This document shows positions 15,917-16,125 of a DNA stretch of 64,000 bases, in pieces. Position numbers and translations under genes: made by a program. The DNA comes from Escherichia phage PMBT16, in the sequence record PP554575; one strand, written 5' to 3'. Within the stretch, counting starts at the first letter, position 1. Each line of letters opens with the position of its first letter. A model generated the notes under the pieces. The model did not search any database. It was not told the DNA's origin and saw only the letters and a list, made by a program, of their open reading frames with translations.

Positions 15917-15972
15917 TTGAATGATAATCATTCTCGTTTGCAGAATAACGGGCAGGCCCGGTGATTGTCTCC
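15917..15972 (+). promoter_or_regulatory. Fur-box-like palindrome (GAATGATAATCATTCTC) overlapping a putative promoter, followed by conserved motif GGCAGGCCCGGTGATTGTCTCC
   Basis: 15/19 match to GATAATGATAATCATTATC; TTGAAT -35 overlaps box; conserved 22-mer at 15951-15972. Confidence 0.5.
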
Positions 15973-16034
15973 CGGCCCCTACTGCCCCGGCTTGTTATTA
16001 TAGTAACACACAGGACAAAGAAAGCAAGAAGTTT

Positions 16035-16125
16035 TTGCATAAATTTTTAGACGATAATGATAATCGTTCTCATTTCATGCAGCGCCCATCCCCGGTGGTT
16101 GTCTCCCCCGTCACCGGTGCCTGCC
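16035..16125 (+). promoter_or_regulatory. Fur-box-like site (GATAATGATAATCGTTCTC) overlapping -10 of TTGCAT-N18-GATAAT promoter, followed by CCGGTGGTTGTCTCC motif and CCGGTG/CACCGG hairpin
   Basis: 17/19 match to Fur consensus at 16053-16071; motif variant at 16092-16106. Confidence 0.5.

Follow-up and report, generated by a model that had tools for sequence, protein, structure and literature searches.

Candidate Fur operators beside a conserved hairpin motif in the gene-free control region of virulent enterobacterial phages

Introduction

Does a strictly virulent phage carry operators for Fur, the iron-sensing regulator of its host, and what might such operators control? The question is raised by a stretch of 64,000 nucleotides from Escherichia phage PMBT16 (sequence record PP554575), referred to here as the window, in which two palindromes resembling Fur boxes are each followed by a GC-rich motif. 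The window comes from a Vequintavirus, an rV5-like virulent myovirus; its segment 15400–16900 is 98.7% identical to Escherichia phage JeffSchatz and matches 121 phage records. Both units lie in an ∼700-bp stretch without a convincing gene (15583–16284), between two plus-strand gene arrays. Replication genes (helicase, primase-helicase, and DNA polymerase) are found 8–18 kb upstream, and many small open reading frames (ORFs) with sigma-70 promoters lie downstream.

An earlier reading of the letters, the original prediction, had described the sites as Fur-repressed promoters in the classic layout, each paired with a structured motif, and had proposed small RNAs (sRNAs) or the first early gene as their targets. 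The strings and positions it quoted are all present, including the ATG at 16285. On sequence grounds we are almost certain that these are real Fur-type operators, and they appear to form a conserved module of virulent enterobacterial phages. The elements are as follows, with scores from a position weight matrix (PWM) described below.

15919–15935: GAATGATAATCATTCTC, the string originally reported for Fur box 1
15917–15941: Fur box 1, overlapping 19-mers TTGAATGATAATCATTCTC and GATAATCATTCTCGTTTGC in 6-bp phase (PWM 16.2 and 17.1 bits)
16053–16077: Fur box 2, the 19-mer GATAATGATAATCGTTCTC (16053–16071) and a site shifted by 6 bp (PWM 22.2 and 11.6 bits)
15951–15972: GC-rich motif copy 1, the 22-mer GGCAGGCCCGGTGATTGTCTCC
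16092–16106: motif copy 2, the variant CCGGTGGTTGTCTCC, with CACCGG at 16112–16117

Results

Two phage sites resemble E. coli Fur operators

Box 1 matches the 19-mer Fur consensus GATAATGATAATCATTATC at 15 of 19 positions and box 2 at 17 of 19, as originally counted. With up to three mismatches allowed, the consensus has a single site in the 64 kb, at 16053–16071, where 0.04 would be expected; in box 1, the core AATGATAATCATT is present exactly at 15920–15932. The best sites of E. coli operators in eight regions carry three to six mismatches to the consensus, and the phage boxes carry two and four.

Nineteen sites from eight E. coli K-12 intergenic regions under bona fide Fur regulation (ryhB, fepA-fes, fepD-entS, fepB-entC, fhuA, cirA, fecI, and fiu) were used to build a symmetrised PWM. 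Its three highest scores in the 64 kb, at 16053, 15923, and 15917, all fall in box 1 or box 2, and the best score outside the two boxes is 14.35 bits. The training sites range from 10.9 to 19.3 bits, such that box 2, at 22.2 bits, exceeds all 19 of them, and leave-one-region-out matrices give the same result. When the 965-bp noncoding region is shuffled with its dinucleotides preserved, scores of 16 bits are attained in 0.1% of copies and scores of 22 bits in none of 2,000. Because the boxes hold the top ranks and the shuffles fall short of them, the Fur likeness is far above that of shuffled AT-rich DNA, the comparison on which the original prediction had staked its claim. In the 135.6-kb genome of JeffSchatz, the closest relative fetched in full, the boxes remain the top PWM matches.

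Both boxes are pairs of overlapping sites 6 bp apart (15917/15923 and 16053/16059). This spacing is the criterion described for clusters of Fur sites (Chen et al., 2007, PMC2189734), and the phage boxes share it. An additional, decayed box TTAAATGCGAGGAGTTCTCATTT lies upstream at 15888–15910; it scores below 4 bits in the window and occupies the place of the −72 box TTGAATGAGAAGCATTCTCATTT of EC152 and BIS47. Directly left of the boxes, at 15866–15885, is an AT-rich, near-perfect palindrome, TAATTAGCGTGCTAATTA.

Weaker Fur-like sequences occur elsewhere in the window. A cluster of palindromes at 27383–27535 (GTAATGATAAAGGTTCTCAC, CAATGATAGGTATTCTCATTC, and AATGAGAAGTATTCCCATT; PWM 8–11 bits) sits inside an ∼2.5-kb noncoding gap, which by coordinate arithmetic contains the start or end of several relatives' records; these record ends may mark the physical ends of those relatives. 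A match at 17795–17813 (13.95 bits, and 16.6 bits in JeffSchatz) falls inside a small ORF annotated in JeffSchatz (equivalent to ∼17770–17889 of the window) and is probably due to chance.

The box and its GC-rich motif form a conserved module

A blastn search for distant relatives returned 249 records. Outside Vequintavirus, conservation is limited to ∼60 bp, made up of box 1 and the motif after it, with 80–88% identity. We compared 22 loci, drawn from Vequinta-, Seuna-, Mydo-, Certre-, and Phapecoctavirus, W70, Serratia phage Kashira, Aeromonas phage PhAER-3, and several IMG/VR contigs. All 22 have a Fur box at exactly −43/−37 from the anchor motif GGTGWTTGTCTC, and the junction between box and motif, GCAGAATRRCGGGCA, is nearly invariant. 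These relatives span at least six genera, two subfamilies, and eight host genera. The pairing of box and GC-rich motif is thus a conserved module across genera.

The number of boxes varies. Certrevirus and phAPEC8-like phages have extra boxes at about −72, −101, and −133, with a pitch of ∼29 bp and up to four boxes in all, and several genera retain one box only. The second unit (box 2 and motif 2) is confined to the rV5 clade (the window, JeffSchatz, rV5, and the loci L012 and L013), which points to a lineage-specific duplication; the two units are 134–136 bp apart.

Capture of a host promoter was considered as a source of the module and rejected. E. coli genomes gave no match to the module at E ≤ 0.01, a threshold that a bare 22-mer would miss, and a pattern search for box plus motif among the genomes of 100,044 species, which found it in no bacterial chromosome, returned only a phAPEC8-like contig from a metagenome-assembled genome and one chance coding match. 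On these searches, the module is not host-derived.

A 26-mer, GTTAGCCCCGCCTTTWCGCCGTGGGG, lies some 150 nt rightward of the Fur box in 16 loci of different genera (L002–L004, L008, L011, L014–L021, and L023–L024) and is invariant among them, with no mismatches. It belongs to a conserved block, CTACCGGCGATCCACCTTCC...GGTGGCG, in which four sequences show one compensatory G-C to A-U pair and a G.U pair is invariant. No match to it was found in Rfam, and neither the window nor the fetched rV5-clade loci contain it.

The same palindrome recurs in unrelated viruses

The exact 18-mer TGAATGAKAATCATTCTC was found in 72 IMG/VR stretches, which resolve by flank similarity into 35 unrelated contexts, the rV5-like family being one. 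Many of these contexts have two to six boxes, often in arrays that adjoin sigma-70 promoters. In L103 and L117, for example, tandem TTGACA-17-TAAAAT units carry a box at about +8; in L123, three boxes with a 30-bp pitch lie upstream of TTGACA-17-TATAAT; and in L126 the boxes adjoin the DnaA boxes TGTGGATAA. The convergence of unrelated elements on one palindrome favors a conserved host protein, Fur, over a phage repressor. Binding of the sites by Fur is likely, as far as sequence can indicate, and the recurrence suggests a general principle that has been overlooked. Among the IMG/VR loci L069–L132, the 347-kb contig L109 also retains the box-GAATAGCAGGCAGG junction.

Candidate cognate proteins encoded by the phages were rejected. 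A tblastn search with an approximate Fur query gave no match to a Fur homolog in the phage, and a phage-encoded Fur was set aside on that result. The minus-strand gene adjacent to the module in some relatives belongs to at least three unrelated families, has no helix-turn-helix match, and is absent from Vequintavirus.

Predicted hairpins around the GC-rich motif

The motif CCGGTGRTTGTCTCC has three copies in the window, compared with 0.10 expected, and there are likewise only three in JeffSchatz. Each copy lies in a potential hairpin:

15945–15998: module 1, outer stems AUAAC/GUUAU and GGGCAG/CUGCCC, inner stem CCGG/CCGG, and loop UGAUUGUCUC; the motif is at 15958–15972
16092–16125: module 2, a CCGGUG/CACCGG stem around GUUGUCUCCCCCGU, followed by GUGCCUGCC, which is common to the 3′ arm of copy 3
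25270–25312: copy 3, a strong hairpin GGCAGGC...GCCUGCC with the motif on the minus strand (25305–25291) and without a Fur box

Copy 3 is the sole copy that folds significantly, with a folding z of −3.07 on the minus strand and −2.92 on the plus strand. The corresponding values are −0.8 (plus) and −1.25 (minus) for module 1 and −1.25 (plus) and −1.66 (minus) for module 2. The description of the motif as structured thus holds for copy 3 and is weak for copies 1 and 2 on either strand. Copy 3 is identical to copy 1 over 22 nt and lies on the opposite strand, so plus-strand RNA from copy 3 would be complementary to plus-strand RNA from copy 1.

Across genera, the loop UGWUUGUCUC is conserved and the stems vary. 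The variation includes the compensatory sets AUAAC/GUUAU, AUAGC/GCUAU, and AUGAC/GUCAU, together with uncompensated changes; the RR of AAURRC pairs with UU, CU, or UC partners in three lineages. Immediately 5′ of the motif (15951–15972 and 25291–25312 in the window), close relatives, and likewise different genera, carry either GGCAGGCCC or GGCACCCCC (or GGCACACCC), with no compensating change in the partner arm.

Assignment to a known RNA family was rejected, because Rfam 15 contains no relevant match; at E values up to 1, the only hits are at chance level and far below their gathering scores (Lst thermometer, E 0.88; snR9, E 0.28), and the related loci gave none. Homology to host ryhB was rejected as well: SSE121 shares a 12-nt identity, TTGTCTCGCGAT, and a similar GCGA...UCGC stem, but the significance of the local alignments is confined to the Fur box. 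Aligned locally to ryhB, the window gives p ∼0.06.

Predicted promoters on both strands

Sigma-70 promoters were scored in 18 phages. Those of the window that bear on the module and on copy 3 are listed here:

15917–15922 and 15941–15946, plus strand: rightward promoter, TTGAAT, N18, CAGAAT; 8.1 bits, predicted start at ∼15950–15955
16027–16022 and 16002–15997, minus strand: P(−)mid, TTGCTT, 19-nt spacer, TATAAT; 9.0 bits
16171–16143, minus strand: P(−)right, TTGACA, 17-nt spacer, CAAAAT, extended TG; 13.2 bits, 10 of 12 matches
25234–25261, plus strand: TTGCAA, 16-nt spacer, TATACT; reads into copy 3 in the GGAGACAA sense and overlaps a bidirectional terminator hairpin

The spacer of the rightward promoter is the proximal Fur box itself. 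P(−)mid has an alternative form, with a 16-nt spacer to TACTAT and a TG (8.0 bits). Its equivalents, with the −35 at +67 to +70, score 9–15 bits in 15 of the 18 phages and read TTGCAA, TTGATC, or TTGACC, 16–17 nt, and TATATT or TATTAT; a transcript from P(−)mid would have its 5′ end at the base of hairpin 1 and run on across the Fur boxes. P(−)right reads into hairpin 2 and box 2, and counterparts at +183 to +235 score 11–15.5 bits in 16 of the 18. The module is thus flanked by convergent promoters. The stronger ones point leftward, and in their direction the hairpin precedes the box.

The hairpins are not themselves convincing terminators. Their tails are poor in U and no site passes a terminator scan, so a reading of them as intrinsic or bidirectional terminators was rejected; only copy 3 among the motif copies is followed by a terminator hairpin. 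In addition, CCWGG repeats (Dcm sites), CCTGGCGGGGCC, occupy the spacers of several sigma-70-like promoters on both strands, at 16150–16246 and elsewhere, and the phage encodes a Dcm-like cytosine methyltransferase.

Neighboring genes and the noncoding region

The first early gene (ATG at 16285), suggested by the original prediction as a target, has its own promoter, TTGCAA-17-TATAGG, in relatives, and several other genera have, between the module and the early genes, an annotated minus-strand gene in convergent orientation. Control of the early genes is therefore not the conserved function, although read-through into the early gene could matter in this strain. The window lacks, at 16238/16239, a 47-bp segment that is present in JeffSchatz and rV5 and that carried the −35 TTGCAA of the first early gene's promoter; the deletion lies between the repeats CCTGGCAGGGCC and CCTGGTGGGCC.

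It had also been claimed that no convincing ORF follows the boxes. This holds insofar as no protein gene is evident as a target, although an ORF of 95 amino acids (15921–16208) extends over both units, and some records annotate it as hypothetical. We judge it spurious: it starts inside box 1, and most of the records fetched from related genera have no coding sequence annotated over that stretch.

To the left of the Fur boxes lies a set of repeats:

15617–15802: three direct repeats of 65–74 bp, iteron-like, with the core GTACTCGATCTGTTTTTCGTTT

Analogous (G)GTCTCGATC repeats are numerous in phiTE and SSE121. Identification of the region as a genome terminus or pac site was rejected, since records linearized at observed ends place it ∼11 kb inside the genome. 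The pseudo-ToxI locus of phiTE was rejected as a counterpart because it has a different genome position (106.7 kb versus 39.6 kb).

Discussion

The sites of this locus are similar to Fur sites, are conserved, hold a fixed geometry, and are accompanied by promoter-like elements on both strands. The best explanation, which we regard as no less probable than improbable, is that they are genuine Fur operators that gate convergent noncoding transcription around a hairpin. The module would consist of one to four Fur boxes, the junction GCAGAATRRCGGGCA, and the hairpin with its UGWUUGUCUC loop, set in a gene-free control region, and the rV5 clade would have duplicated it. In an iron-replete cell, pre-existing Fur-Fe2+ would occupy the boxes on incoming DNA, shutting the rightward promoter and possibly placing a roadblock before leftward RNA polymerase. 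In an iron-starved cell Fur would leave the boxes unoccupied, and the two overlapping noncoding transcripts would shift in balance. What is regulated would then be no protein gene but either a noncoding RNA or the passage of transcription through the hairpin and the repeats. We infer Fur occupancy, the strand that matters, and the downstream effect from the arrangement of these elements.

Several observations weigh against this explanation. Box 1 does overlap −35/−10-like hexamers, the classic layout of the original prediction, but the rightward promoter so formed is weak (8.1 bits), is present in 10 of the 18 phages, and varies among A, G, and T at the −11 A, the second base of its −10; the better conserved promoters point leftward. 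The strongest promoters place the boxes at about +50 to +75, past the start, which is not the classical Fur layout. No intrinsic terminator was detected by the terminator scan within 15900–16280 on either strand, and shuffled sequence folds as well as hairpins 1 and 2 do. The strand of any functional RNA is also ambiguous: wobble-compatible substitutions favor the plus strand in the inner stem and the minus strand in the outer stem, and for the wider region in other genera RNAalifold returns energies and covariation terms that are alike on both strands. The matrix scores are partly circular, the training sites having been chosen by consensus similarity. Finally, a regulator encoded by the phage, most of whose genes here have no known function, may recognize the same palindrome.

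Such a regulator is one of the alternatives to be weighed. The palindromes could be operators of a phage-encoded dimeric protein that happens to share the Fur-box sequence, with host Fur irrelevant. They are near perfect (AATGAGAATCATTCTCATT) and more uniform than host Fur sites. However, no regulator gene is conserved beside them, the identical 18-mer recurs in the 35 unrelated viral contexts, and a sequence so near the consensus would be expected to bind Fur anyway; we consider the proposal very unlikely. Quite unlikely, in our estimate, is a Fur-repressed, trans-acting sRNA of the RyhB/PrrF type, transcribed rightward from each unit, with the C/U-rich loop UUGUCUCC as an anti-Shine-Dalgarno seed. 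Each unit does have a Fur box and then a GC-rich hairpin, in tandem like PrrF1/PrrF2, and the conservation of the loop over variable stems fits a seed; the W70 loop, AUUGCUUC, equals 8 nt of the RyhB core, and copy 1 is perfectly complementary over 22 nt to plus-strand RNA of copy 3, upstream of the gene at 25421. What such an sRNA lacks is a terminator, a strong promoter, significant folding, Rfam or RyhB homology, and any phage target found besides copy 3. The small-RNA promoters of the original prediction are accordingly unproven as sources of a discrete sRNA, given also that similarity to RyhB does not extend beyond the box and that the wobble evidence is split between the strands.

Two further roles were considered. 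As a decoy, or sponge, the boxes would titrate host Fur while the genome replicates, derepressing iron uptake and RyhB and supplying iron-dependent phage enzymes. Titration of Fur by multicopy Fur boxes is the principle of the FURTA assay. The role is plausible because box number is expanded (up to four in Certrevirus and phAPEC8-like phages, two units in the rV5 clade, and up to six in unrelated viral contigs) and because iron-dependent ribonucleotide reductases, of class I and class III, are among the gene products of the phage; box 2, moreover, outscores every host training site. However, neither a constant spacing between box and hairpin nor the invariant junction GCAGAATRRCGGGCA would be required of a pure decoy, and several genera have only one box. 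We give this role a small chance of being the explanation, and it is compatible with the gating of noncoding transcription by Fur. Alternatively, the region may be the replication origin of the phage, activated or primed by leftward transcription, with Fur as an accessory host factor or gate. Direct repeats adjoin the boxes, an A6T6 tract (GAAAAAATTTTTT) occurs in other genera, three leftward promoters have no gene to express, and the unrelated contig L126 has identical boxes beside DnaA boxes; the locus also lies 8 kb downstream of the polymerase-primase cluster and is not a genome terminus. Against this, there is no DnaA or IHF consensus in 15300–16300, GATC is not enriched there, no initiator protein was identified, and the skew analysis of the rV5 genome paper did not single out the box region. 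We know of no precedent for Fur acting at an origin, and we regard this possibility as unlikely.

Fur operators as such are textbook knowledge. The phage boxes match the consensus as well as or better than the E. coli operators of ryhB, fhuA, fepD-entS, entC, fecI, fiu, and cirA, and share with them the 6-bp-phased overlap and the multi-box arrays. Unlike these operators, they are carried by a strictly virulent phage, lie in a region free of genes, and are followed by no iron gene; their overlap with a functional −35/−10 is uncertain, as the best promoters put the boxes past the start. PrrF1 and PrrF2 are arranged as tandem duplicates. RyhB (RF00057) and this pair resemble the phage units in having a Fur box by a noncoding GC-rich hairpin, two tandem units, and a C/U-rich loop, whereas the phage units lack sequence or covariance-model similarity to them and lack a Rho-independent terminator. 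Face-to-face promoters, with complementary transcripts predicted across a stem-loop whose loop is conserved, recall ColE1 RNA I/RNA II and lambda OOP; there is no homology to either, and a link to replication or gene control is hypothetical here.

Host Fur operators on phage DNA have precedents. Temperate Stx1 phages carry a Fur box at stx1. Those known boxes, on stx1 and sitABCD, regulate cargo genes of prophages, whereas the boxes described here lie in a core control region of virulent phages from two subfamilies. The sitABCD box belongs to lambdoid coliphages (PMC6969025). In a full-text literature search for Fur with Vequintavirinae, phages, and phage sRNAs, the only case found was the sit operon of lambdoid prophages, which has a Fur box; neither Fur-binding experiments on these sites nor relevant Vequintavirus transcriptomes turned up in the literature searched. 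The rV5 genome paper, which lists sigma-70 promoters and a non-coding block, makes no mention of iron. Fur operators as a conserved core feature of strictly virulent phages are apparently undescribed.

A bolder proposal is that virulent phages of at least two subfamilies, perhaps dozens of unrelated lineages carrying the palindrome, use host Fur as an iron sensor: the operator array would flip a switch between convergent promoters around a conserved hairpin, yield a RyhB-like RNA and/or license transcription into origin-like repeats, and, through its amplified boxes, drain host Fur. If this is true, the lytic programme of strictly virulent phages would take iron status as one of its inputs. 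We put this forward tentatively and consider it rather doubtful in full. If Fur binds, the phages able to sense host iron would include the rV5-, phAPEC8-, PVP-SE1-, and CR3-like groups, with many candidates for phage therapy or biocontrol among them. Since iron is the most strongly withheld nutrient in the infected gut and blood, the efficiency of infection could depend on it.

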